Assembly (NCBI GenBank): GCA_010405405.1
Contig: MU004238.1
Location: forward strand, 1,685,530-1,749,529
Direction of reading: 5' to 3'
DNA from: Microthyrium microscopicum
Taxonomy: Eukaryota
DNA length: 64,000 bases
Under the pieces are notes generated by a model. That model was not told where the DNA came from. It did no database searches and worked only from the letters and a program-made list of their open reading frames with translations. Position 1 is the first letter of the stretch; each line of letters begins with the position of its first letter. This document shows, piece by piece, positions 1 through 24,618 of the stretch. The position numbers and the translations under genes are program-made.

Positions 1-3000
1 AGGCACGCTTCTTCCGTTGACAACAGCACCGAACACTACGTCGTGGAGACCCTGCGAGCGTGCGAGTACGATGGCCCAGGCGACAGTGAGAATGGTAGCT
101 AAAGTGAAGTTTCCAGGGTTTGAGGGAACAGAGCAGGCTTTTGTAAGGAAAACAGTCCCAGCCGCGGCACTGGATCCACCAAGCTTGTCAAGCACTGTCA
201 TTTGTGAACCATTAAGTTTTTGTTTCCAATAGGATTGAGCAGCTTGCTTTGATTCGCCGTTGATATAGTGCATATATCTGGAAAATGGGATGGATTGAGG
301 TAAGATTGCTCCGCCATATGTCGTATTAATATGACGAACCAATTCTGACAGCGAAACTCCATCGTACTGGGCGTGAGATATCCTGAACACCAGTGCCTGT
401 TTGGATGGGCCGCGGATGAAGAAGAACCTGAGAAAGCTAGAGCCCAAGGCAAATTCAGACTCGATATCGGCCTTGCAGAGCTTATTGCAGTAATTGGCGA
501 CATCTTCTTTCGTTTCATGCTTTTCTCTGGGAGCTTCTAGATTTTGCAGCACAACTTGAAGGTACGAACCTTCATTTTTCACAAAGACTGTCCGCAAAAT
601 CTCATAATGATCGACAAGGTCATCGCATGCCTTTGCTAGTCGGGCCAGATCGATAGAGTGGTCGAAGTAAAATATGTTGTACTGGACTGAACTACGCGGT
701 CGACGAATTGTCGCATTGATATCCATGTCTTGAGTGTCGGATACCGGCAGAGCATCAGCAATATCCCAATTGTGGTTCTCCAGTAATGAAAGGATTTTGG
801 TTTCGGCAAACTTTGTTGAATTGGAGAGCTTAAGCAAAGAGAATGGTATTATTTTCGCCTTCGGTAATTCCTCTTCCGAAGATAAGCTGGTAAGACCCAA
901 GGCCATTTCTCTGAAATGCATTCGACGGAAAATATCGGCGACACTCAAACTATAGCCAGAAGCCCGTACAATAGAAACAAGCTTCATCGCTATTATGGAG
1001 TCTCCACCTATTTGGAAAAAGCTATCATTGGGCTTGAAGTCCTTAGATTCTAGACGAAGAACTTTCTGCCACGCTCGACGAAGAACTGCCTCTTTTTCCG
1101 ACTCCGGAGCTTGTGAAGTCGATTTTTCATTCATGTGCATCCTTTGATCATCATCAGGCTCTTGAGCCACTGCCTTCTCTATTGACCGACCCTGGTTAAT
1201 GATAATAATAGAGCCATCATTGTCGTATCTCGCCAACGCTCCTGTTTTGGAGAGACGACCAGATCGCCCAGATATTGCGCCATGTCCTTTGATGAGCCAT
1301 GACGGGTCTTGAATGGTATTTGTGGACTTAATAGGGCCTTCCAGATGTAGTTCACCAACGAAACCAATTGGGGCAAGCTTTTCATTGTCAGAAAGATGCG
1401 TGATCCACGGCACAACAACTTTCGAAAGTCGGGATTCCTCCTTGGAATTCAAAGTTGAAACGACTATGTCGTTCGTCGCTTCATCCAGTCTAGCAGGAGG
1501 TATGGCATTCCAGCTCCAGATTTGAGAAAGATCTGCATGAGACATCAAACTGACATCATGAATCAGACTATCGTGTGACCCCAAGAGTTGTTGTGTGGCA
1601 ATCTCAAACTTATCCAAGATACGCTCCATTGATTTAACAGAAATGAGGCCAGAGTCGAAGCTGGCATGTACTACAATGTCCGTTGAGCGCAAAGCACAGG
1701 CTATCATCAACGGATAAGAATTGAACTCTATGGCCTCTTCGGCAGGATCACCTCCTTTCGCAAGGAATATATTCGAACTTGGAATAATTTCATCGTCAGA
1801 TGCAGGCTCGAAAGGCTGGATAACGAATCCTGTTTTGATCTCACAGGCAAGCTGCAAATCCGAACTCAAGCGGCGAATATATTGTAACCCAGTATGCTCA
1901 TGTGGTATTCTTGTAATAGCCTCAGTATGAATGTTATGTAGATAATGGCTGCACGAAATTGCAGGATCAACAGATATCTTGACTGGCACTGTCGTAATCA
2001 TTGGGCCTTCGATCTCACCAGGTTCAGGAATTGATATTGAGCGGCCCGTCAGTGTTTCGCCAATGATGACGGAATCAGCACCTGTCAATTGCGAGGAAAT
2101 CAATGCCCACGCCCCGCGTAAAATAGTGGCAGTGGAGATGGTTGACTCGCTGGAGGGCTGCAAGATAAAGGTCTTTTTCAGTCGGACGTCGGGACGTGGT
2201 ATGTAGTTCCTGGACGGAAGTGCAGGAAACTGACGCCCACTTGCTCCCGTTAGTTCTGCTAGCCAATAATTCTTGGATTGGACAGCACTGGGTTTTGAGA
2301 TGTGTTGAATAAAACTCTTGAAAGATGGTCGCATGGGAAGCGTCAGACCTTGGTATACGGACTTGAGTCTATCAATAATAAGAGGTGTAGACCAACCATC
2401 GTAAATGGAGTGGTGGATAGTCCATACAATGGTGTACTCTTGGTGTGAGTTTGAAATCGCAGCGAAAGAGCAAAGCCTATCACCCAACGCGCGTTTTGTC
2501 TTGTGGTCTTCCTCAAGGTAATTTTGTAGGTCAGTGCCTCTGTGCCAGATGATTGTTCCCTCTGTAACAATTTGCATCAGTCCATGGCTTTCAAATTGGG
2601 CCACTCTAGTCCTCAGGGCGGAAACATCGCGAAAGACAGCGTCCCATGCTTGTATGAACTTTTCTACAGTTGATGGAGAGGGTAATTTGAAGATTCGTTG
2701 AGCTATGAAAGACTCTTCTGATCGAACAGAGAAGGCGATGAGTTGCTCTTGAAGTGGCGAGCAAGGGTAAATATCTTCGACCTCTGACACGTCAATGTCA
2801 CAAAGTTTCGCCGCCTCTGTACGAGCCTCACCGACGTCCCAGGTACTTGGTATCAGACTGAATGCAGGAATATTGGTCGAGTTGATATCATCAACAGACT
2901 GCATCTTGTGTGACATGTCAGTCAGAACTGGACTGGCAAGTATTTCAGCAACACTCAGTAGATATCCCTTAGATCGGGCAGCAGATACAAGCTTCATTGC

Positions 3001-5452
3001 CGAAATAGAATCACCTCCCATGCTAAAGAAATTGGAATCGACATTCAGCGTCGTGGGAGAGACACCCAGAACCGTGCTCCAGAGCACTCGCATCAACTCC
3101 TCCTCTGGAATACCAGTTTCCGATTTTCCATTGGCCAAGGTACCATTGGCTGTTTCTCTTGGTGCGATCAAACTTCGAAGTGTCTTCCGGTCGATTTTAC
3201 GAGAGACCATTAAGGGCAACAAGTTCACGAGAATATACTCCGAGGGGACCATATATCGAGGTAAAGTATGAGAGAGATGACTTTGCAAGCCTTCAGCCCT
3301 AGTTGCAAACCCAGAAGGCCGTGAAATGATTTTGAGCGGTTCCGAAGTTCGTGCTTCGCTTAGAGCAACAAAAGCGACTAAAGCTGGCTGAGAATTGTCG
3401 TTCTTTTTCACAACTTCGGCAACGATATCGAAGCCAGGACCCAGATATTGACGGATATGATGTTCAACTTCTCCTAACTCAACTCTCTGACCTCTGATCT
3501 TGACCTGGGTATCCTTTCGACCCACAAAAATAAGTGCCCCAGAGCCATCAGGATCATATCTGACCAAGTCGCCTGTTCTATAAAGGGGGCCCGGGCGAGG
3601 ATCAGCAGATTGGTCACTGTTGTGAAGCCATATTGGAGGTGGAATGAAAGAGGCTGCAGTCTTCTCGGGATCATTGAGATAGCCTTGTCCGACTACGGGT
3701 CCTTCAACCAACAGCTCGCCTACTGCGCCAATTGGGACAAGCAATTCCGCATCATCAGGGTCTGCAAGCCACAGACATGCTCCAGTTGGCTGGCCAATAT
3801 TGACATAGTCCTTTCCTGTGTCTGCAGAACTATTGATGGTGCATCCCACCGTACATTCTGAGGGACCATAGCCAATCACGATTCTGGTGGACTTTCCCCA
3901 AAGAGAGACATCGCGAGGAGATACAGCTTCGCCACCCAGTCCGAGGCTATGTAACTGACTGATGACATCGTCGTCTAGAATCCGAGCAATCGAAGGTGTA
4001 AGGTTAGCCATGGTGATGGACATGTTGCGAATCAAGCCATTAAGATTGTTGAGTCGGTCTTCGTCAGATGGTATACACAAGCAGCCGCCTTGCATGAGAG
4101 TGCACAGCATGCTGTCAATGCTCACGTCGAAAGCATAAGAGGCAAAGTCCAATACTCGAGTGTCGGATTTGTAGCCTACAGTTTGACATCGCGGGATAGC
4201 TCCACTAGTATAAGTTTCATGAGAGATAACGACTCCTTTGGGCTTCCCTGTGCTTCCAGAAGTGAAAATTATATATAAAATCGAGGAAGGTGAAACATTT
4301 GGTAAAGTAGTGATGCTTTCTCCAGCTGTGACTATTTGCTCAGTGCTGAAGAAAGTTTCAGAGAGAGCAAAGACATGCGCATCTGGGAGAATATCTTTTC
4401 CGAGTTGAGATAAAGACTTGGATGTGATCATAGTAGTGGCCGAAACTTGTTCTGCAATAGTGGCAAGTCGAGCTTTGGGCTGACTCGGATCCATGAGAAC
4501 AAAGGTGAATCCAGCTTTCATAACAGCAAGAACTGCAATTACCGTCCAGCGAGATTTGGAAAAGCATATCGGAATGGCTGCTCCTTGTTTGATCCTTAAT
4601 TTCAAGATCATATACGCCAGTTGTGTAGAGTATGTTTGGACTTGTGTATATGTGAATTTGCCATCCCAAGCATCAATAGCGAGGGCATTGGGTGAGACAT
4701 TTGCTTGGGAAGAAATCAGTTCGTGGCTACATTGAGATATATTTGCAGGGAGGCGATGATTCCAAGTCCACAACTGGCTCAGCTCCCAGTCTTGAACTTT
4801 GGTCGCCTCCTTGATGCTAATATTTTGATTTGCAATCAGCAGGTTCAAAATATGAGCCAGAGATCTGATGTGACAATTGGCTGAGAACTCGTCTCTCGAT
4901 TTTGGATTCCATGAGGATCGAGCCCAAAGATATCCTTCCAAGATAAAGCAATCAATCCTTATTTGAGCCTTGAAGATAATGTTAGTAGGAACTCAAGATA
5001 CGTGTGATATAGCAAGGAGTGCTGCTTACTTCCGAATCGTCTGGCTCCAAGCCTGCAGCTAACAATGATCCATCAATGAATGATAGAGTCCTGATTTTGC
5101 GATGCGTGGTTCCAATGGATAGGTTTGTCGAAGACAACTGGTCTCGAATGGAATTAGTGAATCTATCAAGTGCGATATCCCTATCCTGGAGCAAGTTCTC
5201 CTGGATAAATGCGCGCGACAAGATATTGTCTGGGTGGCCCTGATTTTCGATATGACCTTGACCCCAACCAAGAGCTGGTATAGCATCGCCATGGTACCGG
5301 TAAACCGTTAGTATCCAAGAGAGAAGTAGCAAGTGCTCGAAATCGGAGCTACATGCAGGATGATCCTTCAAACCCGAGTCTAGCTTGTAATCGACCTTGA
5401 AAGGTTGAAAGCCAGACTGAGTGGTAAATTGGACTTGTAGTATATCCGTCAT
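1..5452 (-). CDS. sidD: Siderophore non-ribosomal peptide synthetase, SidD/NPS6 type (A-T-C-dA-T-C), 3' end outside window
   Basis: ATG at 5452; intron 5029-4969 (GTAAG...CTAAC...AAG). Exon 2 appears open to the window edge; frame was checked at several motifs. A-domain motifs AIDAWDG, YIIFTSGSTGKPKG (~4230-4280) and GELLVEGP. T domains FFSMGGDSI (~3010) and FFQIGGDSI (~1005). C-domain motifs HHSIYDGW (~2410) and SHAQYDGVS (~370). Lies among siderophore genes. Confidence 0.9.
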
Positions 5453-6384
5453 GTTCAACAGGCGTTAGACGTTAATGAACGCCTTTCTGAATTTGAAACC
5501 AATATTCTGGTCTCGATACCTATCATTCGAGGAGCTTCAAAGACAATGTAGAATAGGAAATTAGATCTTTTGCAGCACTAATCCCCAAGAGAATACATGC
5601 TTGGTCGAACATCTGAAAATACACGGTGACGCTGTCAACCCTTCGCGAGGAGGACGACGAAAAGGAAAGCCGGATTCAAACCTGCATGACAAAAGGTATT
5701 GAATGCTTACCATTCTTTACAGTCGCAAACAGATCGCACTGTGACCTACCTAATGGAGCTGGGCCCGACCTGAAAATGACATACGGTGCCTTCGCAAGTT
5801 TAGCGAACACATTTCTCTCTTAATCCCTTGTAGCCAGCTAGGGTCAAAGGTAGGGAAAGTAGTCAATGGAGTGATCTTCATGGCTACCATAATCAACACG
5901 CACTATGGTGACATTGAGTATGCCGCCTGCAACAGCCGAGGCGGCAAGGGCCAAAATTGCGGTGATATTCCAAAGCAGTCGAAACTTGAATGTGCTGTTT
6001 GGCTGGTCGGTCAAACCACACTACCGTATATCTTGCTCTTGCACGGCGAATGTGTTCACTGGCAAACTTGCCCATGCAGCAAAACACTAGGTTTAGAGAT
6101 AGTGGCAGGCGCCCGAACGGCGGTGCCAAAATTCCAGCATGTATCATCATGTAATTGGTGGCGCGTCTTTGAGCCGAGAACAGACGGGCCAGGTTTCGAG
6201 GCACTAAGGTGGTTATGTATGCTGCAAGAGCTAGGACGGGTATCGCGACATGATCTTCCACGGCTTCACCAAGCTGCTGGTCGTCGAAAACCGGCAACTG
6301 GTTGGGATAGATGGAAAGCAAAGTTGAGAAAATGTGGATAGGCGAAGGACTACACGAAAAATGGATCTGAATCCCTGAATATCA

Positions 6385-6766: not shown

Positions 6767-8089
6767 ATGGCTCTATTACCGGAATCAAGCAGTCAAGCGC
6801 CTCTCAAGTCTATGGCACTGGCAAAGCTTGCATTACCACATCCATTCCTGACTGAATTTCTTGTTGTACCATCATTGAACACCAACAATGATGGGTCTAC
6901 TCTTTTGCAGATACGTCCTGCCCAATCAGGAAAGGGCATCGCACTGAGCTCACCACTTCATCGCGATGACCTTCACTTCACCGTTCCTCAGGCCACAGAG
7001 CACTCATCACAGTTAGACTCGTCGGACAACACTCAATGGGCGAGGTCTCAAAGAGCATCACGGGCTATCTTCTGGTGGGAAACCACCTCACCACCTACTA
7101 CTGGTCAAATATGGCTGATCGTGTATGCGCTTCTCATCATGAAGCCAGAGTTGGAGGTCTTTCGTGTCGAACTCAGCGGACACGATAACTCTATCGTTGC
7201 GACAAACCTCAAATCATCCAGTCTTGCCCATGAGCATCCAAGACCCCATGGACAGGACGACTTTTCTATTTGCACAGACCTGATTATATCGAGAAGTGCT
7301 TTTTGGCAAGGGGCAGCTTCTCCTTTTGGAGCTCGTTCAGCTTGGACCCCTTCATCTCGCGAGACAATCAACGTTGAAGCGACCGACTTTACGATCACCA
7401 CCAGATTTCCAGACCGTCTGGTACACCAACGACATCCTCGCCGACCTCACAAACCTACACCTAATAGCGTCGTATACAGCCGCTACATCCCATCGCTTGA
7501 CGAGCATTTTTCGTTGATAGCCCTCGACTATGAAAACGAGAAACATGTCCAGCTGTTCCATAAATGGCAAAACGATCCACGAGTTGCGCAAGGCTGGAAG
7601 GAAACTGGCACGCTCGAAGAGCACCGCACCTATCTCAAGAAACAGAATGACGATCCTCACACGTTGACAGTATTTGGCCGATTTAATGACACCTGCTTTT
7701 CATACTTTGAAATATATTGGGCCAAAGAAGACCATGTAGGAGCACATTACAATGCTGGAGATTTTGATCGAGGTCGCCACTCTCTAGTAGGAGACGCTAG
7801 GTATAGAGGGCGACATAGGGTTCTCGCTTGGTGGTCATGTATTGTGCACTACATATTCCTCGACGATCACCGTACCGATGCCGTTATTGGGGAACCTCTT
7901 TGGTCAAATGATCAAGTTTTGATCTATGATTATACACACGGCTTCCATTTGGTCAAGTATATCGACTTTCCTCATAAACGTGCGGCTTTGGTTCAAGTGT
8001 CGAGAGAACGATTCTTTCAAATTTCACCTTTGACTCAAAAAGGCGGGTTTGTCGCAGGTACTGGTTTGCCGCTACCAGCGAGATTGTAG
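6767..8089 (+). CDS. sidF: N5-hydroxyornithine acyltransferase (SidF, IucB-like GNAT), C-terminal PTS1-like ARL
   Basis: Intronless ORF with HKWQNDPRVAQGW, YFEIYWAKED, DRGRHSLVG and FPHKRAAL motifs; first ATG at 6767; ends PARL. Confidence 0.9.
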   Translation: MALLPESSSQAPLKSMALAKLALPHPFLTEFLVVPSLNTNNDGSTLLQIRPAQSGKGIALSSPLHRDDLHFTVPQATEHSSQLDSSDNTQWARSQRASRAIFWWETTSPPTTGQIWLIVYALLIMKPELEVFRVELSGHDNSIVATNLKSSSLAHEHPRPHGQDDFSICTDLIISRSAFWQGAASPFGARSAWTPSSRETINVEATDFTITTRFPDRLVHQRHPRRPHKPTPNSVVYSRYIPSLDEHFSLIALDYENEKHVQLFHKWQNDPRVAQGWKETGTLEEHRTYLKKQNDDPHTLTVFGRFNDTCFSYFEIYWAKEDHVGAHYNAGDFDRGRHSLVGDARYRGRHRVLAWWSCIVHYIFLDDHRTDAVIGEPLWSNDQVLIYDYTHGFHLVKYIDFPHKRAALVQVSRERFFQISPLTQKGGFVAGTGLPLPARL

Positions 8090-8440
8090 TGTAGCATTTT
8101 ACGATAATATTCATAACGCAACATTGCAAGTAATTTTTAGTTCCATGTGCCTTTCGTAATCCAAAGCTTTCTCGACCATACATGTGGCCTGCTAAATTGA
8201 CGATGACCACTCTGGCGTAGAGCCGATTTTGACTTAGCCAGTAGAACTGAGTAATCAACGAGAACGAGCTTAGAGAGGCAGCGATTTTCAACGAAAGAAT
8301 AAATTTAGCGCACATGTGTTGCAGGGACAAATTTAAAGCTTTGCTGCACCCACAGAGTACTTTGACTTGGTACCTCGTCCCCAACCACGCTTTTCAACCT
8401 TTAATATCTCAACCCAAAGCCAATTCCGATTCAAGTCAAC

Positions 8441-10221
8441 ATGGCAGAATATATGCAAGCCCATATCAATCAAAGTGCTCCTGCTGGATCAAAACAATCC
8501 CTTTCTATTATTCATGGCCCATCGTATCCTCCACTTATTACATTGACCATTTCACAAATGCTAGATCTACAATGTCGACAATTTGGCTCGCGAGAATGTC
8601 TTATTGTACCTTGGACTGGAGCAAGATGGACATACAACCAACTGCGGGAGCAAAGCATTGTCCTCGCCAAAATGATGCTTGACGTTGGAATTCTACCTGG
8701 AGATCGAATTGCCATAATGGCAGGAAACTGCGAACAATATGTGGCAACATTGTTTGCCGCTTCTCGCATTGGTGCCATTCTAGTAGTTTTGAACAATACG
8801 TACACTGCATCAGAAGCACTGCGAGCTATCCATCATACCGAAAGCAGACTGCTTTTTACTACACTCAAAATTGGGAGCTTGGATAATTCACTTTTACTCT
8901 CTGAGCTTTGCAGCAGTTTAGACTCTGCCCCGGCTCTGGAGGAAATCATCATTCTGACCGGCGAGTCCAATGGGTTCCGCGCATATGAGGAAGCTATTGA
9001 AGCTGGTAATTACCTGAACAGCGAGGCCCTTGACAGCATTCAAGTGACTATTAAATCTCACGAGGTTTGCATGCTTTTGTTCACTTCAGGTTCCACTGGC
9101 AATCCCAAAGCCGCGAGTCTCACACATCAGTAAGTGTAAGATGATAGATTCCTTAGACCTACCATGCTAATAAAATTAGTAACGTTGTCAACAACTCTCG
9201 ATTCATCGGCAATCGCATGAATCTCACCAAAGACGATGTACTATGTTGTCCACCACCACTTTTCCATTGCTTCGGCCTAGTGCTTGGTCTGTTGGCAGTA
9301 ATGACACATGGCGGAAAAATTGTATATCCTGCAGAAATTTTCGATCCTCCAGCAACCCTCAAAGCCATCTACGATGAAGGATGTACCGCACTACATGGAG
9401 TGCCAGCCATGTTTGATTCCCTCTTCTCCTTACCGAGGAAGGGGCTTGGCAAACCAAAACTGCGCACGGGAATCGTTGCTGGTTCGCCTGTCCCTCGTCA
9501 CATCATGGAAAAAATGATCAACGAGTTTGGCATGTCGGAATTTACCAGTAGCTATGGTCTGACTGAAGCGTCCCCAACATGTTTCAACTCTTTTACGCAC
9601 GACAGCATCAGAAGGAAACTTACCACTGTTGGTACGCTGATGCCGCATGCGCATGCAAAGATTGTCGATCGAAAAGGAAGGATTGTGCCAACTGGCCAGC
9701 GAGGCGAGTTGTGCATTGCGGGCTATCAGCTGCAGGCTGGATACTGGCAAAATCAAGAGAAGACATCGGAGGTCATGATGTATGATCAAGACGGTGTTCT
9801 ATGGCTACATACTGGTGATGAGGCGGTCTTCGACAATGATGGGTACTGCAGTATCACTGGGAGATTTAAGGACCTCATTATCAGGGGCGGCGAGAACATA
9901 TATCCACTGGAGATTGAAGAGCGACTGGTTGCTCATCCTGGAGTTCTGCGCGCTGTGGTGGTAGGCATCAAGCACCATAGACTTGGAGAGGTTGTAGGTG
10001 CGTTTTTGCAAGGCAAAGAACAAAGCTCTCACCCAACTGATTTGGAATTGCGATCATGGACGCAGAGACGCTTGGGTAAGCATAAAAGCCCGCAGCATAT
10101 CTTCTGGCTTGGGGAAGGTGGTATGCCAGCTCAAATTCCTTTGACTGGTAGTGGGAAGATTCAGAAATATGTGTTGAGGGATATTGCAGAAAGCTGTCTC
10201 ATGAGAGCTTCAAAATTGTGA
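8441..10221 (+). CDS. sidI: Acyl-CoA ligase, mevalonyl-CoA ligase SidI-like, C-terminal SKL
   Basis: Exons 8441-9129 and 9180-10221 (GTAAGT...CTAAT...TAG). AMP-binding motifs FTSGSTGNPK, CCPPPLFHCFG, YGLTE, TGD and GRFKDLIIRGGENIYP. Confidence 0.85.
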
Positions 10222-10342: not shown

Positions 10343-11695
10343 TCATAGGCGGGCAGTTTCAGGAATTACTCTACGACCGGTATATCCCTCTGGCGACTCG
10401 GAAGATGAATATTGTGTCAAAGTGCGCAGAAGTTGCTCTGTCCTGAGAGCTAGATTCTCAAAAGAGTTTCCGGTAGCATACTCATCTCGTAGAATCCATG
10501 CGCCATTGGCACCTTCAATCCGAGGAGCCAAAGGCTCGTCCTCGGCACTGTTGACAACTTTCTCTGAACGACCAATGATATTCTTCAATTGTGCCATCAA
10601 ATGTGATTGCTTCACGTCGGCGTATCTGGAGGAGACAAAAATATAGTCAAACGCGTCAGAGCAAAATCCAGAGTCGGTACCAGTGTTCCAACATTTCAAG
10701 ACAATTTGATCGAACAGTTTAGAGGTTCCTATGACAGAAGTGCAAGGAAAGATCTCCGAGTTTCCTGGCTTTTGTTTGTGCTTTCGTACCAACTCAGTGT
10801 AGCGCTTTTCGTACAGGCTATGTAGTTGCTCATGCTGCACACTAGGATGAATTGAAGCTTGGGTAGTCGACTCGGAAAACTCGTGTGCTGCTAGACTGGT
10901 TAAGCTATTGTCGTGTTAGTTCTACTGTGAGATGAGTAGAAACGCAGCTTACAATGGGTTGCTATCATGCAAGCGCAGAAATGGCCCCTCATGAAGTAGT
11001 GTGATCTTTGCACCATCCAACCGTTGGCAATACTGGAAAATATCCAAAGCCTCGTCATTGCCGCCTACTACGGCTATGTTAAGAGATGATCCGTTCCATT
11101 GATTCAGGTCGGAAGTATGTTGTGTGAACTCAGAGGTGTGAAAGATACGTTGCCCGACGTTGTGATATGGTACCCATTTGGGCATATCAGGACTGCTAGT
11201 CTGTGAGAGGATGATTGTTTTTGCTCTTATCTTAGTCTCCTGCCCATCGCATTTCCTGGACGTGACCTGAAATTGCCGGCGAGCAGAGGCATGACCGCTG
11301 AGCTGAGCAATAGACTGAACATCCTGATCATATTTGACCCATCCTGTAGTTTCCATTTTCTCTGCACACCAATTCAGATAGTTGCTGAATAGCTGGCGGG
11401 GAGGGTTTATTGCAGAAAGGTTGGTATACATGACAAGCATATCGGTGCTCCACAGATAATTGACGAGCGTAAATTTGGAGAGCGGATTTCGAGGAGTGAC
11501 CAGATCCTGCATGAAGTTCGATTGCATCTTGGACCTCTCGAAGGGTAACCGGCTGCCTTGCCATGAGAACCGTTTCTCCTTTTCCAGGAAGAGCACCTTG
11601 AGTTTTGGCTGTTGCTCATAAAGCCCAATCGCGAGAGATAGAGCAGCAGAACCAAAGCCCACACAAACAATGTCGTAGACTTCGGTGGCGGCCAT
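10343..11695 (-). CDS. Divergent L-ornithine N5-monooxygenase (SidA) paralog, 434 aa
   Basis: Exons 11695-10953 and 10904-10343, joined in frame by a GTAAG...CTAAC...TAG intron. N-terminus YDIVCVGFGSAA, VLFLEK and DLVTPRNPLSKFTLVNYL matches the SidA family; ends ARL. Confidence 0.8.
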
Positions 11696-12023
11696 AATCT
11701 TGTTCTGAAGAGAGATTAAAAAAATGATCTTAAATAGAGAATATGTCAGTCACAAAATGATCAAACGTTCTTGCAAAACCTCTTGACTTCGCGAAGCCAG
11801 TCTACGAATGAAAAAGGCACATCCCGCTAAGTGTCTTCAAAACATAGTTTACAAAACGGCTTGGCTTGTTAATTACCGACTAAGTTTCACTCTGTCATTG
11901 TCCGATCGCAAAGTTGCACAAAGACTGTCAGTGATCTACCGGACGCTGAATGCAACGTGCGCAAGGCGTCGAAATGACAGCATTAAGGACTATCTGCCTA
12001 GAATTACACCACTTTGACCTAGA

Positions 12024-12175
12024 TGTTATAAGAATATAAGAAATAAAGCGTAGTTAATTACTATAAGAGTCTAAGGGCCTAATATAGTTTTTAAGACACG
12101 CTAATTAAGGAATTATATTATCCTTAATTAGGTCCTATAATTATCTAATCCTTTAGTATATTCTTTATTATAATA
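12024..12175 (-). repeat. 3' LTR
   Basis: Direct repeat of 21474-21625; differences are mostly transitions. Confidence 0.9.
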
Positions 12176-15100
12176 TTCTTCCTTACTAGTATAAACTCTT
12201 CTAAGATTATAAATCTTATAGCTATAGCTTTAATAAATAAGTAAAATAAAAAGAATATTATAATAATTAATAAAGAATCTTTACCTAGAAACTAGGTCTA
12301 TTACTCTAGCTATATTAAATAGTAATTTCTAAAATATTATTCTCTAAGAACTCTTCTTAAGATCTTAGTTAACCTATTATAAATAGTACTTAGGTATTTA
12401 TAGCTCCTTAATCTTTTTAAGAAGGTTTATCTATATAAAAGCTATTAGTAGTAGTATATTAAGAAATTATAAAGAGTTTATATAAGTATACTAAAGCTAC
12501 TTAATCTAGTAAGGAATATATATAATCTACGTATTAAGGCCTTAAAGGATAAAGTTTATAAGAAGTAATATATAGGTAGTAATAAAGAACTAAGTAGTAA
12601 TTACTAGTCTAAATAAATATAGAGATAAGAGCTTAATTTTATATTTATAAAGCTTTATAATTTATTATCTTTTCTTTTTCTTCTTTATTATACTTCTATA
12701 ATATTTTTAAGCTAGTAGAAGTAAATTTCCTTTTATACTTTTAATATTATTAAATATAAGTAACTTTATATATTCTCTTTACTTAAAACTTACTATTTAT
12801 ACTTTCTAAAGCTCTTAAAATAGCTCTTCTAGGTATTCTAAAAAAGAATAGCTTTTAAAAGTTTAATAAAGGAAACTCTTTCTATTTAGGTACTTATTAG
12901 AAAATTATTAACGCTTTAAAGGAAGATAAGTAGAAATAGCTCTTACCTTATATAACTTATTTATATAAAAAGGTTAAGACTAAGGTTTTATCCTCTTTAC
13001 TAAGTTATAAAGAAACTTTTATAAAATTAGTTTATAACTTAATTAAGCGTTATTCTTATTCTATAAGTTTCTAGCTAATTAACTAAATTTTAAAGGCTAA
13101 TAAGGAAGAGGAAAATCTCTTTAGTAATACCTCTAATAATATTTTTTATTCTTATTATAAGTTTTTAATATCTTTTATAATGCTAAGAATATTTTATTAA
13201 ATAATTTATATTAATAATACTCTTACTTAGAAATTAGTATATATAATAAAAAGTCTAGACTTATTAGAAAGTAATTATAAAGCTAAGTATAGAACTTTTA
13301 TACTTTTTAACTTATTATAGATATGTAATTTTTATATTAAGACTTTTATAATAGTTTTAACTTATAAGTATAAGGTTACTAAAAAAGAGTTAGTAAACTT
13401 AGTAAAGTATTAAGAGTTTATAAAGTAAAAAATAAAAGGTTATAAAGATTAACTAGTTTTTACTAATAAGAGCTTAGAAGATACTTATAAGTATATTAAA
13501 ACTACTAAAGCTATATATAATAAATATAAGTAAAAGTTAAAGTAAATAAAATTTTAAAAGTATAAACGTAAAGTAAGCTTAATAGTAATTCTAAAAAAGC
13601 TATTTACTACGCGTAGTTATATAAATATAGTAAAACTAACTACTAAGAAGAGTATAAATTATTAAGAGAAGTAGATTAAGTTCCTAAATTCTAACTAGTA
13701 TCTTATCTTTAAAGATATTAAATTTTTAAAGAAGAAAGTAACTTAGGAATTACTTTTTTAGCTCCTAAAGTATTATTAGAAAAATAGAAGTATTTTAATA
13801 AAAGTTACTAATATCTTAGTACTTATATCTTAGTAAGGAATTTATTAATATTTAAGTACTTTACTCTTAACTAAAAATATCTTATTATTATCTTCTTATT
13901 TAAAGACTTCTATAATATATATAACTATAGAAAGAAAGTAAGAAAAGGCTTATAAGCGTTATTAAGATTCGTTATAAGTCTATACTTATAATAAGTATAT
14001 TATTAATATATATAAAGAGAATAAAGCTTTTTTTCTAAATAGCGTCTATACTAATTATATATTTAATAATAAGCCTTAAACTTATTTATTTTATAAGGAC
14101 TACGTTCTACTATAGAGTTAGAAGAAAAGTTTAAATCTTATTATTATTTAGTTATCTACTTCTCTTAGTATTCTTAAATTACTAATTAATAAGAAGTACT
14201 TTAAAATAGCTAAAATTACTATAGAATTAGTAGCCTAAATAAAGCTCTTAGAAAATAATAAGAAGAAGTAAATATAGGCCTTAAAGAGATAAGACTCTAT
14301 AGGATTATAGTAGGATATATAGTAATAGTTCTTTAATATTTCTATATTTCTTAGTCTTATTTTATTAGTTTATTAAAGAGTAGACTTTAGTAATAATCCT
14401 AGAGATTACTAAAAAGATCTAAAGATAACTTATTATATTTAAATATTCTTAATAATAGTCCTAAGGATTACTAAGAAAATCTAAGGATTTAGCTTATTTA
14501 TTATAGCTTATAATAGTTTACTTAAATTAATAATAAAATAAAAGTAATTTCTTATAAATAGTTTCTTAAATAAATATAATTAAGAAAGATTATAAAAGAG
14601 ATAATAAAAGGTTAATTTTTCTTTTCTTTCTTATAGGCACCTTACCTATATTTATATATAAGATAATCTCTTATTTAGAAGTAGCCTTTTATTATCTTTA
14701 TTCTAATCTTAAATATTATAGACTAGTACTAGGATATATAGAACTACTAGGTATTATAGTTAGCTTAAATATATTAGTATTCTATAAGAATTCTTTAGTT
14801 ATATCTATTTCTTATAGTAAACTAAGTTTAAAATAATTTATAAGAAGAACTTCTACTTTTATAGTATTTAGTAATAAAGAGTTAATACTCTAATAGTTCT
14901 CTTTAGGATTAAATACCTATTTATATAAATTTATTATCTCTAGTATAAGTATATAGATAATTAGGATAGTAATCCTATTATAACTTCTTAGCTTTAATAA
15001 TTTATTTTTTTAATCTTATTATTCTAGTAATATAAAAATTAATTCTTAATTTATTATAGCTAGGAGGATTTCCTTCTTTACTAAGCTTTAATTTAAAGAA

Positions 15101-18100
15101 ATAGAAATATTATTATTATTTTTTTTTATTAAATTTTATAGTACTATAAAATATTTTATCTTCTATATAATTTACTTTATTTACTCTAGATTACTTTATA
15201 CTAAAGCTAAAATTAGATTAAAAGGAATATATTCTAATACTATAAGAGTTTCTAAGTTACTACTTAGATTATAGATAGTTACTATAGAATATTTTTTTTC
15301 TTATTTATAAATACCTACTTTAGCTTCTTAAATTTTTTTTATAAAGTTAAGAGAAATAGTAGGTAGACTTAAGTAATATCTCTTAGTACTAAACTTCTTA
15401 ATATTAATTAACTTTACTAAAAGGTTTCTTAATCTATTAAGCTAGTTTTTCTTAATTATAATAGATATATTTATTTTACTTCTATACTCTTTATTTAAGA
15501 CGCTTTTAAAGTTATTCTTACTTAATTACTTATACTTAGGATATAGCTAGTTTTAGTAATAGTATTTTTTTTTTTTTATATATATATCTATATAAAGTAA
15601 TTCTTATAAATAAGGTTTTTAAGTACTTTTCTATTAAGTATCTTAAGAGTATATATTCTTAAGGAATAAGCCTTTAAAACTTTATAAAAGCTAAACTATA
15701 CTACTTAGAACTTAGTTTTATTTAAGTTTTTAAGAAGTATATAAAAACCTATAAAGAACTTAATAATAAAGTCTTTTTTTAAAATTATATTATTATTAAT
15801 AAGGTTTAAGGCTATAGCTTATTTTAATAAAGTATTATAATAGACTTACTTAGTAATTCTAACCTTCTTTAGGTAATCTTTAGTAATTATATAGATAAGA
15901 GGTATAATACTAGTTAATTTAGCCTATTTATTTTCTTTTACTTAGTTTATTTTAAAATCTTTAAAATCTCTTTTATAGATAAGAAAGAAGAGAAATATTT
16001 CTAATATAGTATAAGCTTATACTCTAGTAGTATAAACTACTTAATTTAGATATAAATCTTAGCTAGCTATAAGTTTTCTTTTTAAGAACTTAGTTAAGAA
16101 TATATCTAGTAAGCTATTAAATTTTTTAACCTTTTTATTAGACTAGGAGTTATATAAAGCTATTAAGTAGTACTTAGTCTTTATTTATTATAATAAGAAT
16201 AAAATTACGTTTAAAATAAATTAAGGTCTATTATTTAAAGTTAATAATTAAAAAGGACTATATTCTAAAATAATTTTTCTATAGATAAATTCTATAACTA
16301 TAAAAGTAGTAGTATTTAGTATTACTTTTATAATAAACTATCTTATAGTATAGTTAATTATATAAATAATATACTAGTTCTTAAGAAGACTCTATAAAAG
16401 TTTACTAATTAAGTTAATTTTCTAAGCCTTAAATAGCTATAGGTTTTATACTTAATAGTAAGACTTATATTTAGGCTTACTTTAATCTATCTATTAAACT
16501 TAATATATAGAATAGAACTTAGTAAATTCTTAGAAGTTATCCTCTATTCCTAACTACTAACTCTTTAGTTTAAGAATACTAGTAAGGCTTATATATAATA
16601 AGTACTTATACTAATTATATATTTTCTTAATAAGGTCTTAGTAATAAAGAGAATAAATATAGAGTAAACTAGTAAGTATCTTAGCTTTAATAGAATCTTT
16701 TTCTAAGAATAAATACTTATATTTTTTTTTAATATTACTATTAGGATTAATCTAAAAATAATTAAGAACGCTTTTTTAAAGCTTCTTCTATATACTAGTA
16801 GAAATAATATAATCTTTCTTTTTTAATACTTTTTATAAGCTCTATATATAGAGAGCTTCTTATTCTTTTTACTCTTATAAGGATTCTAATAGGGTAGCTT
16901 ATACCTTAAAAGATAAATTATTATTATTATTTTTAGACTCTATTTCCTAAATAGTATTAATTTATCCTTCTTAAAAGTTTAAATAATAACTAAGAGTATT
17001 AAGAATTACTACTTAAAAACTCTTATAATATATAAAGATAAGATTAAATTCTTAGAACTTTTTAATCTATTAAGTAATATATTAGATATTATTTTTAATT
17101 ATATTTATATACTATAAGCTATTATAATCTATAATTACTTTAGTAGTCTTCTTTAGAAAGTAATATTAATATCTCTTAATTATATTCTTAACTATAAAAA
17201 GCTCTTTCTTATATACTAGATAGTTAAGTTTAGCTTTACTTAGCTTATAGCTATTAAAAGTAACTAAGTATTATTTACTCTAGTTATTTTTTTATACTAG
17301 CTTATAACTAATTATATAATCTAAAGTATTTATCTAGAGTTTTATAGGCTTTTATAAATTATATACTACTAAGATAAGTAATAAAGTTAATAAAGTCTTA
17401 ATTCTATTAAAGGCTATAGTATATTAATAAGTCTAAGTAATAAAGTAGTATTTCTTTTTTTTAATATTTAAGTTAGCCTTCTTTAGAAGGTTAAAGATAA
17501 AGGTAGTAATCTTAGTAAAGTTCTTAATATATTACTAGTAGTATAAGGTAAAATTAAAGAATTAATATACTTTATATATATTTTTAGTTATAAGCTAAAA
17601 CTTAATTAAGGTAGTCTTTTTATATAAGGATTAAATTTACTAATTTTCTACTTTATAGCTATAAAATTTAATCTTTTTAACTCTAAAGACGTATTTATTA
17701 GAATAAGTATAAAGCTTATTATTCTAAAAGATTTTTAAAACCTAGGTAATATACTTATAATATTCTTCTATAATATTTAAGTAAATAATAATATTATTTA
17801 AGTAAATAACTACGTAGGTTAATAGAAAGAGTTAAAGAAATATATTTATTATATATTAAAAGAATAATAGCATATTTATTAATTTAAAAGATATAATAAG
17901 GAACTTATACTTCCTAAACTTAGTATTAAAGGCTATTTTCTTAATATTTTTTTCTATTATATAGATTTACTAATAGCTTAATAGGAAGTTAAGCTTAAAG
18001 AAAAATTTTACTTTACTAATAGTATTAAAATACTTATTAATCTATAGTAAGGAATAAGTATTCTTACGTATAACTATATTAAGTAAATAGTAGTTAATAT

Positions 18101-21100
18101 ATATTCTTTATTTTCCTTCTAGCTTTAATACAAATAAGATAAAAAAACTTTAAAAACTTTCTAAGACTCTAATAAGTTCTTTAGTAAGTAGTTCTTAAAT
18201 CTACTTTTCTTATTCTTTTAGTTATAAGCTAGATATTTAATAATAAGCCTAGTTATAAAGAGAGACGTCCTTTATAGAGATTTTATAATTAAACTTAGAA
18301 TATAGTAAGAGTTTAAGAAGGATATAATAAAAGGACTTATAATAATTATTTAAAAGTTTCTATATATCTTTATCTTTTAGAGCAAGTTTATTAATATTAA
18401 GGTTATTAGTTATTAAGAAGATATTAGGCTATTCTTATATTTCTTAAATTAGCTAAAGAACACTCTTAACTTTATCTTTTACTCTTTTTACTCTATTTTA
18501 AAGTATTTAAAAAATTATATAAAGAGAGCTAGCTATAAACTACTCTATTTATTCTAAGTAGCTTCTCTTATTCTAAAGAGGCTCTACTTAGCGTTTTATA
18601 GTAAGCTTATAAATATATAAGCCTTTTAAGTATTACTCTATAAGCTTAATTTACTTTATTATCTAGTTAATCTATAGATTATATAATTAGAACTATAAGA
18701 GTCTAAAAATAATATTAAGATTAAAGATATCTAAGATATAAGCCTTAAAGTAGCTATAAAAGGTTCTAATATAATAAAGTAAGTAAATCCTAAAGAAAGT
18801 TATAATTATATAGCTATCTATAAGAATAACTTCTTTCTCTAGAATAAATATTATAAGAGCTTTAAGTTTCCTAATAATCTTTTAACTAATATAAATAAAG
18901 TTAGCTTCTAAGTCTAAGAAAGCTATAATTTTAATAGAATAATTTTTATAATATAAGTAAATAAGTAGATATAAGAGAGTATTACTATATCTACTTATAT
19001 AGTTAAGGAAAGCTTATTAGTTATTATATAAATAAATAAAGTATTCTAGTTCTAAGCTAGAAGATTCTTATTTATCTCTTAGTAATAATAGTTTTTTAAA
19101 CTCTATTATTATTAGTTAAGCTTTTTATAATCTATAGCGCAATAGCTAAGTTTACTATAATTTTAGTACTTAAGTTTAGAATTATTTATAAAAGCTTTTC
19201 TATTTTTAGAGTCTTTTTTATAAGAAGGCTATAACTTCTTATTAAAGTTAAATTTCTTAGAGTATTAAGTATTATATTATCTTCTAGGATAGTAACTATA
19301 GCTATTTATAGTATTAAGCTACTCTAAATTATTATTATTTAACTTAGGCTTATTATTAGTATAGCTATTATTATTAACTTCTTTAAGATATTTCTTAAAA
19401 CTAGTATTTAGAGTAAGCTTTTTATCTTCTTTAAAACTAAAGGAAATTTTATTAAGCTACCTTAGCCTATAAGCATTATAAGTATTATATATATTCTTAT
19501 AGAAGTTTATATTATATTTAATAATCTTTTATTTAAAGGCTAAAATATTAATTATAGAATTAAGAATAGTACTATGCCTATACTTAGCTTTAAAGATAAC
19601 TTATTCTTTAAGGCCTCTTTAAATTTAGATACTTAATTTATAATTAGTAAGTATAGGATTTATTTAAGTCTATAGAATATAAAGATAATAAATAAATTCC
19701 TTAGTAAATAAAACCTATAATATATAGTTCTACTAAATACTAATCTTAAGTATATCTTTTTTAATACTAAATATAGGTTAAAAATAGGTAAAGAAGTAAA
19801 ATAAACTTTTAAGTATCTTAAACTTCTCTATAACCTATTATTAAGCTAAATTAGCCTATAGAAAACGTTACTTAATAAGGAGATATTTTCTAACCTTAAT
19901 AATTTTCTATTACTTAGGTAGGGTAGAATCTAATAGGATAATATCCTTATTAGCTTTAAAGATATAAAGAAGACTCTTAGTCTAGGTATTATACTTACTT
20001 AGTTTCTTAGAGAATAAACTATTAGGAAGTATCTTAAACTTAGTTAAATATTATCTTTATTTCTAAAGAACGTCTCTTATTATCTTAATAAGTTTTTAGG
20101 GGCTAAAGGTTTAGAAGAGTAATTTAATAGTCTTATCTAACTTCTTACTTAGCTTTTTTATAAAGTCTAAGTAAGTAATATTTATTTATAAAGTATCTTA
20201 AGTTAACGCCTATATCTAGGTATAAGCCTTAATTTTATCTATTTAATAATTTTAAGTACGTAGAGTAAACTTATTTACGTTAAAGTAAAAGGTTAATTTA
20301 ATAATATAATTTACTATCTTTTATTACTAGGTATATTAGATATCCTTTATAAGTTTAAGGCTATAATCTTATTTAATTTACCTATTAGTAATAAAGTAAA
20401 ATAATACTTCTTAAAGAAGAATAAGCCTATTTATAAACTACTAATTTCTATTATTATTACGTTAAAAAGTTTAGTTATAGGTCTAAGAAACGTAGTTAAA
20501 TCCTTTAGGAGTATAGTTCTAAGTCTAAGAGAGAGTTTATAGTTTAGTAAGAAGATAGTTAATAGTCTAGAGATTAACTTACTATACGTTAATAAAATAG
20601 TTTAAGGCTTAAGGCCCTAATTACTAAATATTAATAACCTAAGTTATAAAGTTAAGACTAAGATTTAGTATACTAGAAAGGTTATCTAGTAATATAAGAG
20701 TAAGTTACTTATTCTAAAGATTTAGGTTAATAATCTAAGCTTAGTATTATATCTACTAAGTATTTTATTCTATAGCTTAGGCTATAATATTATTATACTA
20801 GTTATTTATTTTAGTAAAGAGAAGTAATAGTTTTAATAAAGAGTATAATCTTAGTAAAGTAAAAAAAAAGTCTTAAGATCTAAAAGTTCTTATACTAAAG
20901 TTAGTTAAATAGAATCTAGAGTTAGAAGATTATTTTAAGGTAGATTTTTATACTTCCTTAATATAAATAAGATTTTAATCTAATTTCCTAAGATAACTTA
21001 AGGCTAAGAGTCTACGTTATTACTTATTAGCTTTAATCTATATAGTAAAGTTCTTATAACGTTATTCTAAAAGATTTTTTAAGAAGAAATTCTTATATTT

Positions 21101-21473
21101 TATCTAATAGCTATATAATTAATATAGCAAAGGTTAGTAGGGATAAAGAGGATATTATTATAAGAGAGATAATTTTTATAATATATTTAATAATTTTTAA
21201 AATAGTAGTTTAAATTAAAGATAATTTAAGATATTTTTAGAATATATTATAGTAAGGAATATTATTATATATAAATCTTAAGAATTATTTCCTAATATAT
21301 AGTTATTAAGTATTAGGCTATAATAAGGCTAGCTAATTAAGAGATAATATTCTTAGAGTATATTTTACTAAATATTAATCCTAAGTAATTATTAATAATA
21401 AGATAAATCTAGGGATTTCTATAAGAGGTCTATTATCTAGAGGTCTTAATTAAATTAAATTATTACTACTAGA

Positions 21474-21625
21474 TATTATAAGAATATAAGAAATAAAGCG
21501 TAGTTAATTACTATAGGAGTTTAAGGGCCTAATATAGTTTTTAGAATATACTAATTAGGGGATTATGTTATCCTTAATTAGGTCCTATAATTATCTAATC
21601 CCTTGGCATGTTCTTTATTACAACA
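21474..21625 (-). repeat. 5' LTR
   Basis: Direct repeat of 12024-12175; ends CAACA followed by the TSD. Confidence 0.9.
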
Positions 21626-22689: not shown

Positions 22690-24618
22690 TTAGAAGACTA
22701 GTCCCTTAGTTTGCTTGACGCGGTTGACGTTGACATCCTTAATCATAAACACCCAAATCAGTGAAGTTGCCATGATGCAGACACCAGCAGTGCACATATA
22801 CTTCTGTGCCACAGCATAAGATGTGATGATAGCATCCCGCACAGGATCGCCCATGGGGTAACTCAGTTGAGTATCGAGATCATTGTAGATATCCGTGAGA
22901 TTAGCTTGCGCATAGTCAGGAAGATTCTTGGCCAAAGCTTCCGGGAAGGTGTTTGTCCAGACAGCGCCAGAAATTGAGTTCCCAATGGCGCCGCCAATGT
23001 ATCCAAACAGTCCAAGTAAAGCCAAAACAGCTGCGAATTGCTCATGCTCAACAACAGACATGATGGATATTTGTTGAGTCAAGATGAGAGTGCCGCCGGA
23101 GATAGCTATGAATATCTGGCACATGACCACGTAGCCAACGCTCCAGCCTGGCTGTCTGAAATAAATCATAAGTCCAATGCCTAAGATATCCATGGGAACA
23201 GCGATGATCATGATCCACTTGAAATGTCCAGTTTTGCGGACCAGATATCCAATAAAGAAAGTCCAGATTCCAGATACAACGTCAAAGACGCTGCCAACAT
23301 ATCCAGCCTCTGAAATGCCAAGGTTATGAACCACCTGTAGATAAGAGGTAAAATAACCGCTCCAGCAATAATATCCGACTTGAAAAGCAAGGGTCAACAT
23401 GCAAGTACCCAGAACTGAGCGATGCAGTAGAATGCTGAATGGTAAGAAAGGCTTCGGGGCGAGGAACTTTTCGTATAGGACAAAAGCGATGAGTAACACG
23501 AAGCCGAGGACGAGCATGGCAATGATGTGTGGTGTTTTCCATTGGTCGACGGCATCTCCAGCAATCGAGAAAGGGAGGAGGAAGAGACAGAAGCCAGCTG
23601 CGAATAGAAATACACCAAAGGCTGTTGACATATGAGCTCAGGTTGCATACTCAGGATTCCAAGGAGAACATACCGTCCACATCAACAATATAAAACCAGA
23701 TACTCTGGTTCCATTTCCTACCACTGTTCCTGGGAGTCAACAGTCCTGATTTCTTTGCCTTCTGCTGCCAAAGCATAAGGGTAATGAATAATGGCGCAGC
23801 TACGACTGGCAAGATGATGCAGAAAATACCAAAGGCCCATTGCCAACTGATTTTCTCATAAAAACCTTCAGCCGCTTTGGGACCTGCAAAAGCGGTGATG
23901 ATATACGGCGATGAGGTAAAAGCATAAGCCAGAGCTCGATTTTTAAGGGAAGTGACATCAGCAGTAACGACGTCACAAGAGTAGATGAGCGCATCGAAGC
24001 CGACAGTGTAAAAGACCTGTCATGTTCATCAGTACCAATCTCGAATATAAATAAGCATAGCTGCCTACCTGTGCTGCCGCGAATGTCTCCACGTTTGTCG
24101 TTTTGGCCATCAAGATCAATCCCAAAGTTGCTACGCAAAGCGCAACCGCGAAACCTTGTGGTCGACCCCACAGGTCAAGTAATCTCGACACAGCAAGCCG
24201 CAAGGAGCCAGCCATGACATTGGACACAATGTATATTGTTGGTACCAAAGAGTGAGCTGCAAAATCTGACAAGACAAAAGGCGTCAAGTTGCTGGTGATT
24301 GAAGATTGGAAAGCATTGGCAAAATACACCAGCCAGATTCTACAAACATCAGCATGGGGTTTCTTCGAATGTGTATGCCACTCACGATGCGAAGACAGTA
24401 ATCAAGAATGGTTTTGTCCATGTCAGAGTAATGGCTTCAGCGTTCCGAACTCCATTCTGTACTTCTGGATCTGGTACGTCACTGAGACTTTCCGAGACAT
24501 CTCTGGTGTTTTCGGCCACATTTTTATCTTCGGCAGAGATATGGACTGGCTCTTCGTGCAGACTGCTTGGCTCATTCTCGAGGCGAGATCTAAAGCGAGA
24601 TCTCACTTTGGAAAACAT
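22690..24618 (-). CDS. MFS siderophore-iron transporter (SIT/Arn family, MirB-like)
   Basis: Four exons (24618-24386, 24339-24069, 24016-23674, 23621-22690) with canonical splice sites. Motifs GVRNAEAITLTW, DLWGRPQG, DVTSLKNRA and YFTSYLQVV; multiple TM segments. Confidence 0.88.

Follow-up and report, generated by a model that had tools for sequence, protein, structure and literature searches.

Here we describe a gene of the fungus Microthyrium microscopicum located on the minus strand at positions 10343-11695 of a 64,000-nucleotide stretch of contig MU004238.1 (the window, to which all coordinates refer). Its spliced translation is a 434-residue homologue of the siderophore enzyme SidA, encoded in two exons, and a canonical SidA copy is found about 20 kb from this paralogue in the same window. 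Residues that SidA uses to bind ornithine and reduced nicotinamide adenine dinucleotide phosphate (NADPH) are replaced in the paralogue, and from these replacements we estimate, with a probability of about 0.85, that it no longer hydroxylates ornithine with NADPH. The gene belongs to an old clade of fungal paralogues that derive from SidA, which we term SidA2-type, and it is genuine, transcribed and spliced. That the protein is a pseudoenzyme, assisting the peroxisomal module that builds the hydroxamates without itself being catalytic, would, in our judgement, be an even bet. The sequence features that underlie these statements are as follows.

11642..11659, minus strand: flavin adenine dinucleotide (FAD) fingerprint GFGSAA (residues 13-18), both glycines kept, with Ser in place of the Pro found in all 11 relatives of its subfamily (described below)
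11504..11527, minus strand: MQSNFMQD (residues 57-64), corresponding to SidA M101-D108, in which the ornithine-carboxylate ligand Lys107 has become Gln63
11048..11071, minus strand: VVGGNDEA (residues 209-216), the former NADPH-binding GxGxxA loop, with G255N, Q256D and S257E in SidA numbering
10622..10639, minus strand: FVSSRY (residues 337-342), a degenerate ATGY linker in which Gly has become Arg (codon AGA); the full-length subfamily relatives have ASGY
10346..10354, minus strand: C-terminal Ala-Arg-Leu, resembling a type 1 peroxisomal targeting signal (PTS1), with localisation predicted from it
31193..32711, minus strand: canonical SidA, 488 residues, intron at 31292-31343, all catalytic motifs intact; matches the family profile PF13434 at 4.9e-103 and the Aspergillus fumigatus SidA structures at 1.2e-131

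Residue equivalences were taken from HMMER alignments to SidA structures and from a 40-sequence alignment, and are given in SidA numbering. A first-pass annotation of this DNA had listed a set of altered motifs, and all of them are present in the paralogue: GFGSAA (from residue 13), WQGSRL (45), MQSNFMQD (57), VVGGNDEA (209), FVSSRY (337) and the C-terminal ARL. The counterparts quoted for the canonical copy (GFGPAA, WHAGML, MQISFIKD, VVGGGQSA, FVNEIF, NTNY and FATGY) are found there as well. The segment carrying FVNEIF and NTNY, described as lacking, is indeed gone from the paralogue, but not through a simple deletion, since 37 canonical residues (SPF to QELLEELY) are exchanged for 23 unrelated ones.

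At the former ornithine site, Lys107 is replaced by Gln and Asn293 by Thr, while Asn323 and Tyr324 fall within the exchanged stretch; a Gly is aligned with Ser469, the alignment at Asn323 and Ser469 being uncertain in this diverged region. His91 is also changed to Gln, and Gln102 is retained. In the dinucleotide loop, Gly255-Gln256-Ser257 reads Asn-Asp-Glu (G211-G-N-D-E-A216), so that the second GxGxxA fingerprint with its pyrophosphate-binding Ser (SidA G253-A258) is absent, and Arg279 is replaced by Glu. The ATG(Y) sequence, which we take to be the linker motif of class B monooxygenases, reads SSRY. Thus Arg279, the ornithine ligands (Lys107, Asn293, Asn323 and Ser469) and the ATG(Y) linker of active SidA/PvdA enzymes are all missing. 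In contrast, the N-terminal FAD fingerprint GxGxxA/G (G13-F-G15-S-A-A18) with the acidic residue at the end of strand 2 is present by sequence. Glu38, Trp45, Asp334 and the G-x-W motif are kept, together with the equivalents of SidA Glu83, Trp90, Met101, Asp108 and Arg284.

The available portion of the review PMC7347517 assigns functions to several of the lost residues. The K107A variant of SidA loses hydroxylation; N293, N323 and S469 bind ornithine; S257 binds the pyrophosphate of NADPH; R279 binds its 2'-phosphate, and the R279E variant prefers NADH and is uncoupled. SidA variants R279A, N323A and M101A also appear among PDB titles. Taken with these published roles, K107Q, N293T, the exchange of the Asn323 segment, S257E, G255N and R279E imply that the protein should be unable to work as SidA does. 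The earlier suggestion that residues needed by SidA for ornithine hydroxylation have been lost is in agreement with the mutagenesis summarised in that review. Mechanistically, the ornithine-binding determinants (Lys107, Asn293 and the Asn323 segment) would have been lost with the fold and the FAD fingerprint of an N-hydroxylating monooxygenase (NMO) kept. NADPH binding would have been abolished by the change of the second glycine of GxGxxA to Asn, of the pyrophosphate-binding Ser257 to Glu and of the 2'-phosphate-binding Arg279 to Glu.

The whole three-domain NMO fold is predicted to be retained. The paralogue matches PF13434 (Lys_Orn_oxgnase) with 182.8 bits against a cut-off of 21.3 (residues 5-321 on positions 1-317 of the 339-position profile), compared with 345.2 bits for the canonical copy. 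BLASTP aligns the two copies at 3e-38 with 32% identity over the N-terminal 262 residues and detects no similarity beyond them. Exon 2 alone matches no Pfam family and no PDB sequence better than E = 1.2. Searches of NCBIfam gave only sub-threshold matches (for example, 84 bits against a cut-off of 700 for the histamine N-monooxygenase model), and the protein-cluster atlas gave nothing more specific than generic NMO clusters, with two from Ascomycota (57 members each) nearest or near. An AlphaFold2 model built with 105 aligned homologues has a mean predicted local distance difference test score of 86.6 and a predicted template modelling (TM) score of 0.87, with weak spots at residues 251-270, 364-375 and the tail. 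The comparison of a structural model with A. fumigatus SidA, proposed in the first-pass annotation, was carried out with Foldseek; the top PDB matches are SidA entries (TM 0.78-0.79 over about 450 columns), followed by PvdA, these SidA and PvdA matches together spanning TM 0.77-0.79.

The altered residues are common to a whole group of fungal proteins. A profile-free exhaustive search of 1.84 billion representatives yielded 1015 proteins at E <= 0.001, of which 39 reached E <= 1e-30. In word-index searches the closest full-length relatives are from Venturia inaequalis (454 residues, 38% identity) V. effusa (453 residues), Tothia fuscella (463 residues) and Rhizodiscina lignyota (452 residues, 35% identity). 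We built a quick tree of 98 rows, comprising all listed matches of 400-560 residues and the two window proteins, and a careful mixture-model tree of 40 chosen rows (17 diverged, 13 canonical fungal and 10 others). Both trees agree in their groups and nest the diverged clade among fungal SidA sequences. In the 40-row tree a branch with support 100/98, recovered in 200/200 bootstrap trees, separates its 17 rows from all others. Within it, the window copy, the two Venturia proteins and those of Tothia and Rhizodiscina make up a subfamily of five rows (support 100/100). The wider clade includes proteins of Aureobasidium, Lecanosticta, Neodothiora, Lophium, Phaeomoniella, Exophiala and Lithohypha, among which those of Exophiala viscosa and Lithohypha guttulata belong to Chaetothyriales.

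We compared 11 subfamily relatives (the four full-length proteins and seven environmental fragments) with 11 rows of the broad clade and 16 canonical rows. Lys at position 107 is present in 16/16 canonical rows, in 0/11 broad-clade rows and in 0/11 subfamily relatives, nine of which have Gln. The same relatives have Arg at His91 (10/11) and Arg or Lys at Gln102 (11/11). Their dinucleotide loop is acidified, with Asn or Asp at Gly255 and Asp or Asn at Gln256 (each 11/11) and Glu at Ser257 (10/11, the remaining one having Ala), giving the signature G-x-[N/D]-[D/N]-E-A. Arg279 is kept in one of the ten relatives that cover the column. The full-length members share the shortened segment of the ornithine domain, and the ATG motif reads A-S-G-Y in all four full-length relatives, its Gly being present in 10/11 broad-clade rows. 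The second glycine of GxGxxA is kept in 5/11 broad-clade members. In total, 14 columns are fixed differently in the canonical clade and the subfamily, with concentrations in the 89-110 loop, the P-loop and the loop at about 285-289. Between the V. inaequalis and V. effusa orthologues identity is 88%, and both retain all of the subfamily changes. The search for orthologues suggested in the first-pass annotation thus finds the altered motifs to be common to the Venturia, Tothia and Rhizodiscina proteins and the environmental fragments.

A homologue search with a clade profile gave 16 proteins at E <= 1e-60 among 6413 candidates, with no Cladophialophora protein among the 16. Four Penicillium matches proved to be canonical SidA. 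A metagenome scan with the subfamily alignment found six loci, all 30-37% identical to the query; none is a close orthologue, and they were not used.

The gene model is organised as listed here, X1 being one of the sequencing runs described below.

10953..11695, minus strand: exon 1, codons 1-247 and two bases of codon 248, ATG at 11695; encodes the FAD-binding domain and the beginning of what was the NADPH domain, and alone matches PF13434 at 1.4e-51
10905..10952, minus strand: intron of 48 nt (GTAAGC...ACTAAC...AG), positioned after ..NPF
10346..10904, minus strand: exon 2, from the third base of codon 248 through codon 434, followed by the TGA stop at 10343-10345
10343..10904, minus strand: content of exon 2 with the stop, the C-terminal half of the NMO fold, strongly diverged and modelled confidently within the SidA fold
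11696..11744, minus strand: 5' untranslated end, the farthest reach of an RNA-derived X1 contig

The spliced translation is letter-for-letter identical to the M. microscopicum database protein 'hypothetical protein BT63DRAFT_442096' (NCBI; our P0003), which carries the automatic UniRef name 'L-ornithine N(5)-monooxygenase'. Contigs of two public sequencing runs, X1 and X2, neither of which is on record as RNA, match the locus, and the transcript evidence comes from X1. A single 3267-nt contig of run X1 spans 8392-11744 and skips exactly 10905-10952, a segment bounded by CT..AC on the plus strand and hence by GT..AG on the minus. The same contig skips 9130-9179, the GT..AG intron of the neighbouring plus-strand gene for a SidI-like protein. 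As one intron on either strand has been excised at correct splice sites, the X1 contigs derive from spliced RNA, and the joint at the predicted intron shows that the paralogue is transcribed and spliced as the 434-codon model requires. The unbroken 434-codon frame and clean intron given in the first-pass annotation are thereby confirmed by both the database protein and the contig. The contig merges two convergent genes and has one depth figure, and is therefore a record of transcription rather than of expression level.

The SidI-like gene and the paralogue share this one contig, and because their stop codons are just 121 nt apart, the two transcripts probably overlap at their 3' ends. Run X2, which is labelled as a different organism, contributes low-depth contigs of 191 and 255 nt at 7721-7911 and 11154-11408. 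They match the gene for a SidF-like protein (0 differences) and the paralogue (1 difference), and may represent carry-over between libraries or a close relative.

The intron of the paralogue seems to be shared widely. Fourteen database proteins of less than 330 residues from our searches end in ..PL where exon 1 ends here, and some of these are of canonical type (ending SDDSPL). Such ends are expected from reading into a GTAAG intron, as if gene prediction had continued into an intron located there. This suggests that the intron after ..NPF is old and that its position is common to many fungal homologues. The single introns of the two SidA copies in the window sit differently, that of the canonical copy (31292-31343) lying near the C-terminus after ..ATHG. 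As canonical-type fragments from other fungi end at ..SPF, the canonical copy of the window seems to have lost the older intron at that position.

The Microthyrium copy has evolved faster than its relatives, as assessed at the protein level by branch lengths, a leave-one-out count and a stop-codon simulation. In the 40-row tree its terminal branch is 1.76 changes per column, compared with 0.69 for Tothia, 0.91 for Rhizodiscina and 0.70-0.73 (stem plus tip) for Venturia, a rate about 2.4 times that of its sisters. It is placed, weakly (63/57), as sister of Venturia and not as outgroup of the subfamily. Among the changes private to it are P16S (FAD fingerprint), R46Q, R58Q, G166T and G341R (ATG motif), and its private changes are on average more radical than those of the sisters (mean BLOSUM62 of -0.12 versus 0.42, 1.44 and 0.08). 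Simulated unconstrained substitution of this coding sequence left the frame open in 8.5% of trials once 10% of the amino acids had changed, and in 1% once 19% had. The copy breaks 4/33 deeply conserved fungal columns, inside the range of the other rows (0-7). The simulation and these columns together indicate that most of the extra change arose with the frame still under selection, although a recent loss of function may have occurred in the Microthyrium copy. GC content at third codon positions is 0.49 in the paralogue versus 0.50 in canonical SidA. The coding sequence has no signature of repeat-induced point mutation (RIP), its RIP indices lying within the range of other cluster genes. Leakage of RIP from an adjoining AT-rich block was considered as a cause of the fast evolution and rejected, the composite index being -0.43 and -1.09 in the exons, like the neighbours, against +1.6 in the block.

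The surroundings of the paralogue, beside the canonical SidA, contain the following features.

1..6374, minus strand: nonribosomal peptide synthetase, A-T-C-T-C as far as the window reaches, SidD/NPS6-like as judged from its architecture and neighbours; an X1 contig reaches to 6374
6767..8089, plus strand: SidF-like N5-hydroxyornithine transacylase (GNAT Acetyltransf_8), ending -ARL, covered by X1 contigs
8405..10221, plus strand: SidI-like acyl-CoA ligase (AMP-binding), intron 9130-9179, ending -SKL, convergent with the paralogue
12001..21500: AT-rich block, GC 0.19, TpA/ApT 1.62, (CpA+TpG)/(ApC+GpT) 0.02
about 22690..24630, minus strand: MFS transporter
25001..27000: AT-rich stretch between the MFS and ABC transporter genes, GC 0.30, composite index 1.04
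27095..31055, plus strand: ABC transporter

From this architecture and these neighbours, the paralogue appears to lie inside an extracellular-siderophore cluster of the SidD/NPS6 type. The RIP-like AT-rich block of 9.5 kb starts about 300 nt upstream of the paralogue ATG, and the flanking genes are without RIP signature. The extended SreA motif ATCWGATAA, as given in the available part of PMC10382037, occurs six times in the window versus 2.15 expected, a number reached in 2/100 shuffles. Five of the six positions (6405, 21969, 21991, 25162, 25197 and 42249) are intergenic within the cluster. The two at 21969 and 21991, with the AT-rich block on one side and the 3' end of the MFS gene on the other, may be a remnant of the upstream region of the paralogue displaced by an insertion.

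Four enzymes of the cluster carry PTS1-type C-termini: the SidF-like protein (-ARL, 8087-8089), the SidI-like protein (-SKL, 10219-10221), canonical SidA (-ARL, 31193-31204) and the paralogue (-ARL, 10343-10354). The ARL end pointed out in the first-pass annotation is thus real but not special to the paralogue, as canonical SidA ends in QARL, the SidF-like protein in PARL and the SidI-like protein in ASKL. The PTS1 consensus is a C-terminal [S/A/C]-[K/R/H]-[L/M], with which the -ARL of the paralogue agrees. In the accessible part of PMC3709128, -ARL is described as a functional PTS1, and Table 1 of that paper gives a type 2 signal (PTS2) for SidI of its one Dothideomycete. As all four enzymes carry such ends, the paralogue is probably peroxisomal and sent to the same compartment; its -ARL would deliver it alongside the SidF-like and SidI-like proteins and canonical SidA. 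The A. fumigatus enzymes reported to be peroxisomal are SidF, SidH and SidI alone. Some canonical-clade SidA proteins of other fungi (P0023 and P0025) also end in -SKL or -ARL.

The case for a non-catalytic role is built on the dinucleotide loop, where two to three acidic or amide residues would occupy the pyrophosphate site, together with the disappearance of Arg279 and of the ATG glycine. Several points weigh against this role, or against applying it to the family. For every member of the clade, non-catalytic status is something we infer from motifs. The residues that distinguish the subfamily have not been randomised but are themselves conserved (H91 as Arg, Q102 as Arg/Lys, K107 as Gln and S257 as Glu) and cluster in the former active-site loops, which would fit a retained ligand pocket, possibly even catalysis, as well as a locked pseudoenzyme. 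The FAD fingerprint, Glu38, Trp45, Asp334 and G-x-W are retained, and 5/11 broad-clade members keep the second GxGxxA glycine. Peroxisomal targeting is read from a C-terminal tripeptide, and the argument is weaker for the family as a whole, since most relatives end in A-V-L, A-T-L or A-M-L and are without the basic residue of a classical PTS1. Finally, the window copy departs at 48/141 columns where Venturia, Tothia and Rhizodiscina agree (with the other rows as focal, the counts are 12/105, 18/111 and 25/118). With P16S, G166T and G341R among these departures, it may be losing whatever function the family has.

The alternative that survives best, although we regard it as doubtful, is a neofunctionalised catalytic flavoenzyme. 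Instead of hydroxylating free ornithine with NADPH, it would employ its FAD on some other amine or on a siderophore intermediate, either taking electrons from another reductant or working as an oxidase or dehydrogenase. The retained FAD fingerprint and the predicted full NMO fold would suit such an enzyme. So would the 14 clade-distinguishing columns, each conserved in the subfamily and within active-site loops, and the second glycine kept in 5/11 broad-clade rows suggests that SidA2 may have begun as an active NMO acting on a new substrate. However, that glycine is Asn or Asp in the window copy and 11/11 relatives, Ser257 is Glu in the window copy and 10/11 relatives, and Arg279 survives in 1/10. 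The window copy has further lost the ATG-motif glycine and G166, and no alternative cofactor site is evident.

We consider it improbable that the gene is in decay, that is, a transcribed relic under relaxed selection in Microthyrium within an otherwise functional family. Decay would explain the long terminal branch, the 48/141 departures, the radical private changes with loss of P16, G166 and G341, and the position of the 9.5-kb RIP-like block, which separates the paralogue from the ATCWGATAA motifs at 21969 and 21991. On the other hand, no stop interrupts the 434 codons and the intron is removed from the transcript, the chance of an open frame being P = 0.085 at 10% change and 0.01 at 19%. 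GC at third codon positions and RIP indices match those of the neighbours, and the number of broken conserved columns is ordinary. A young pseudogene, a possibility raised in the first-pass annotation, is not consistent with the spliced contig and the open-frame simulation.

Still less probable is a non-catalytic subunit that joins the canonical SidA tetramer and modulates or localises SidA. The circumstances in its favour are that the paralogue derives from a tetrameric enzyme, is encoded in the same cluster and shares the -ARL end with canonical SidA. Yet canonical SidA, having its own -ARL, needs no piggy-back import, and the two proteins are 32% identical over the N-terminal 262 residues alone, with nothing detected beyond by BLASTP. 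When the exon 1 part of canonical SidA and the paralogue were modelled as a complex, without controls, the score was 0.21 and the mark 0.34, which speaks neither for nor against the pairing.

A redundant ornithine N5-hydroxylase isozyme, as implied by the automatic UniRef label and the PF13434 match and named in the first-pass annotation as what ordinary ornithine hydroxylase activity would indicate, is very unlikely, because the residues needed by SidA are gone (K107Q, N293T, the Asn323 segment, S257E, G255N and R279E), K107A alone abolishes SidA hydroxylation according to the available part of PMC7347517, and PF13434 scores 183 bits versus 345 for the canonical copy.

Beyond the preferred reading of a paralogue that has lost NADPH-dependent ornithine hydroxylation, we tentatively propose a broader role, which we hold to be possible but rather unlikely in its full form. 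SidA2-type proteins might be an unrecognised required component of the peroxisomal assembly of fusarinine/coprogen-type siderophores in Dothideomycetes and Eurotiomycetes. An ornithine hydroxylase would have been converted by the acidified NADPH loop and by arginines in the flavin/substrate loop. As an intermediate-binding pseudoenzyme, the protein would bind hydroxyornithine or a siderophore intermediate and feed SidF. As an NADPH-independent flavoprotein, it would perform new chemistry on a siderophore intermediate without NADPH.

Fungal hydroxamate siderophore pathways (SidA, SidF/L, SidI, SidH, SidC/D and SidG) are considered well mapped and provide drug and virulence targets. Our analysis suggests that the automatic annotation 'L-ornithine N5-monooxygenase' is misleading for the whole SidA2-type clade, and that extracellular-siderophore clusters may contain an additional component beyond the mapped set. 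Should the paralogue prove to be a pseudoenzyme, it would illustrate how a class B flavoprotein monooxygenase can become a protein without redox function; should it prove active, the chemistry of NMOs would no longer be confined to the NADPH-dependent hydroxylation of free amines.

A second sidA in such a cluster is already in print, and describing the paralogue as an undescribed cluster component, as the first-pass annotation did, was overstated. In the part of PMC10382037 that is available, Cladophialophora carrionii has two ornithine monooxygenase genes, sidA1 beside sidC and sidA2 (CLCR_02414) in a sidD-sidF-sidH-sidI cluster. A second sidA in the cluster is also reported for C. bantiana, and two sidA orthologues are called common, citing Haas et al. 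2008. Expression was measured there for sidA1 and not for sidA2, which is treated in this portion of the paper as an ornithine monooxygenase orthologue with no analysis of function or motifs. The present case resembles that of Cladophialophora, as compared by description and not by sequence, in having a second sidA-like gene within a sidD-sidF-(sidH)-sidI cluster, and the SidA2-type clade includes other Chaetothyriales proteins. It differs in that the first sidA of Cladophialophora stands beside sidC, whereas canonical SidA here lies about 20 kb off in the same window. Among the fungal papers found, mainly as titles and abstracts, only PMC10382037 names a sidA2, and this literature reports no function or catalytic-motif loss for such a paralogue. 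What is new here, relative to the available text of PMC10382037, is the conserved loss of ornithine- and NADPH-binding residues in the clade.

Compared with A. fumigatus SidA (PDB 4B63 and 6X0H), the paralogue shares PF13434, the predicted three-domain fold and the FAD fingerprint, and its intron at ..SPF/NPF seems to occur in canonical-type homologues elsewhere. It differs in lacking Lys107, His91, G255/Q256/S257, Arg279, Asn293, the Asn323/Tyr324 stretch and ATGY, and in a C-terminal half that shows no detectable sequence similarity on its own. Bacterial PvdA, KtzI and MbtG match its N-terminal half at 8e-34 to 4e-23, and the DfoA type matches exon 1 at 2.8e-10. Structural matches of the model to these bacterial NMOs (PvdA, KtzI, MbtG and DfoA) have TM values of 0.74-0.78. 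All of them are active NADPH-dependent enzymes, whereas the window protein has replaced the residues of the NADPH loop and of the substrate site.

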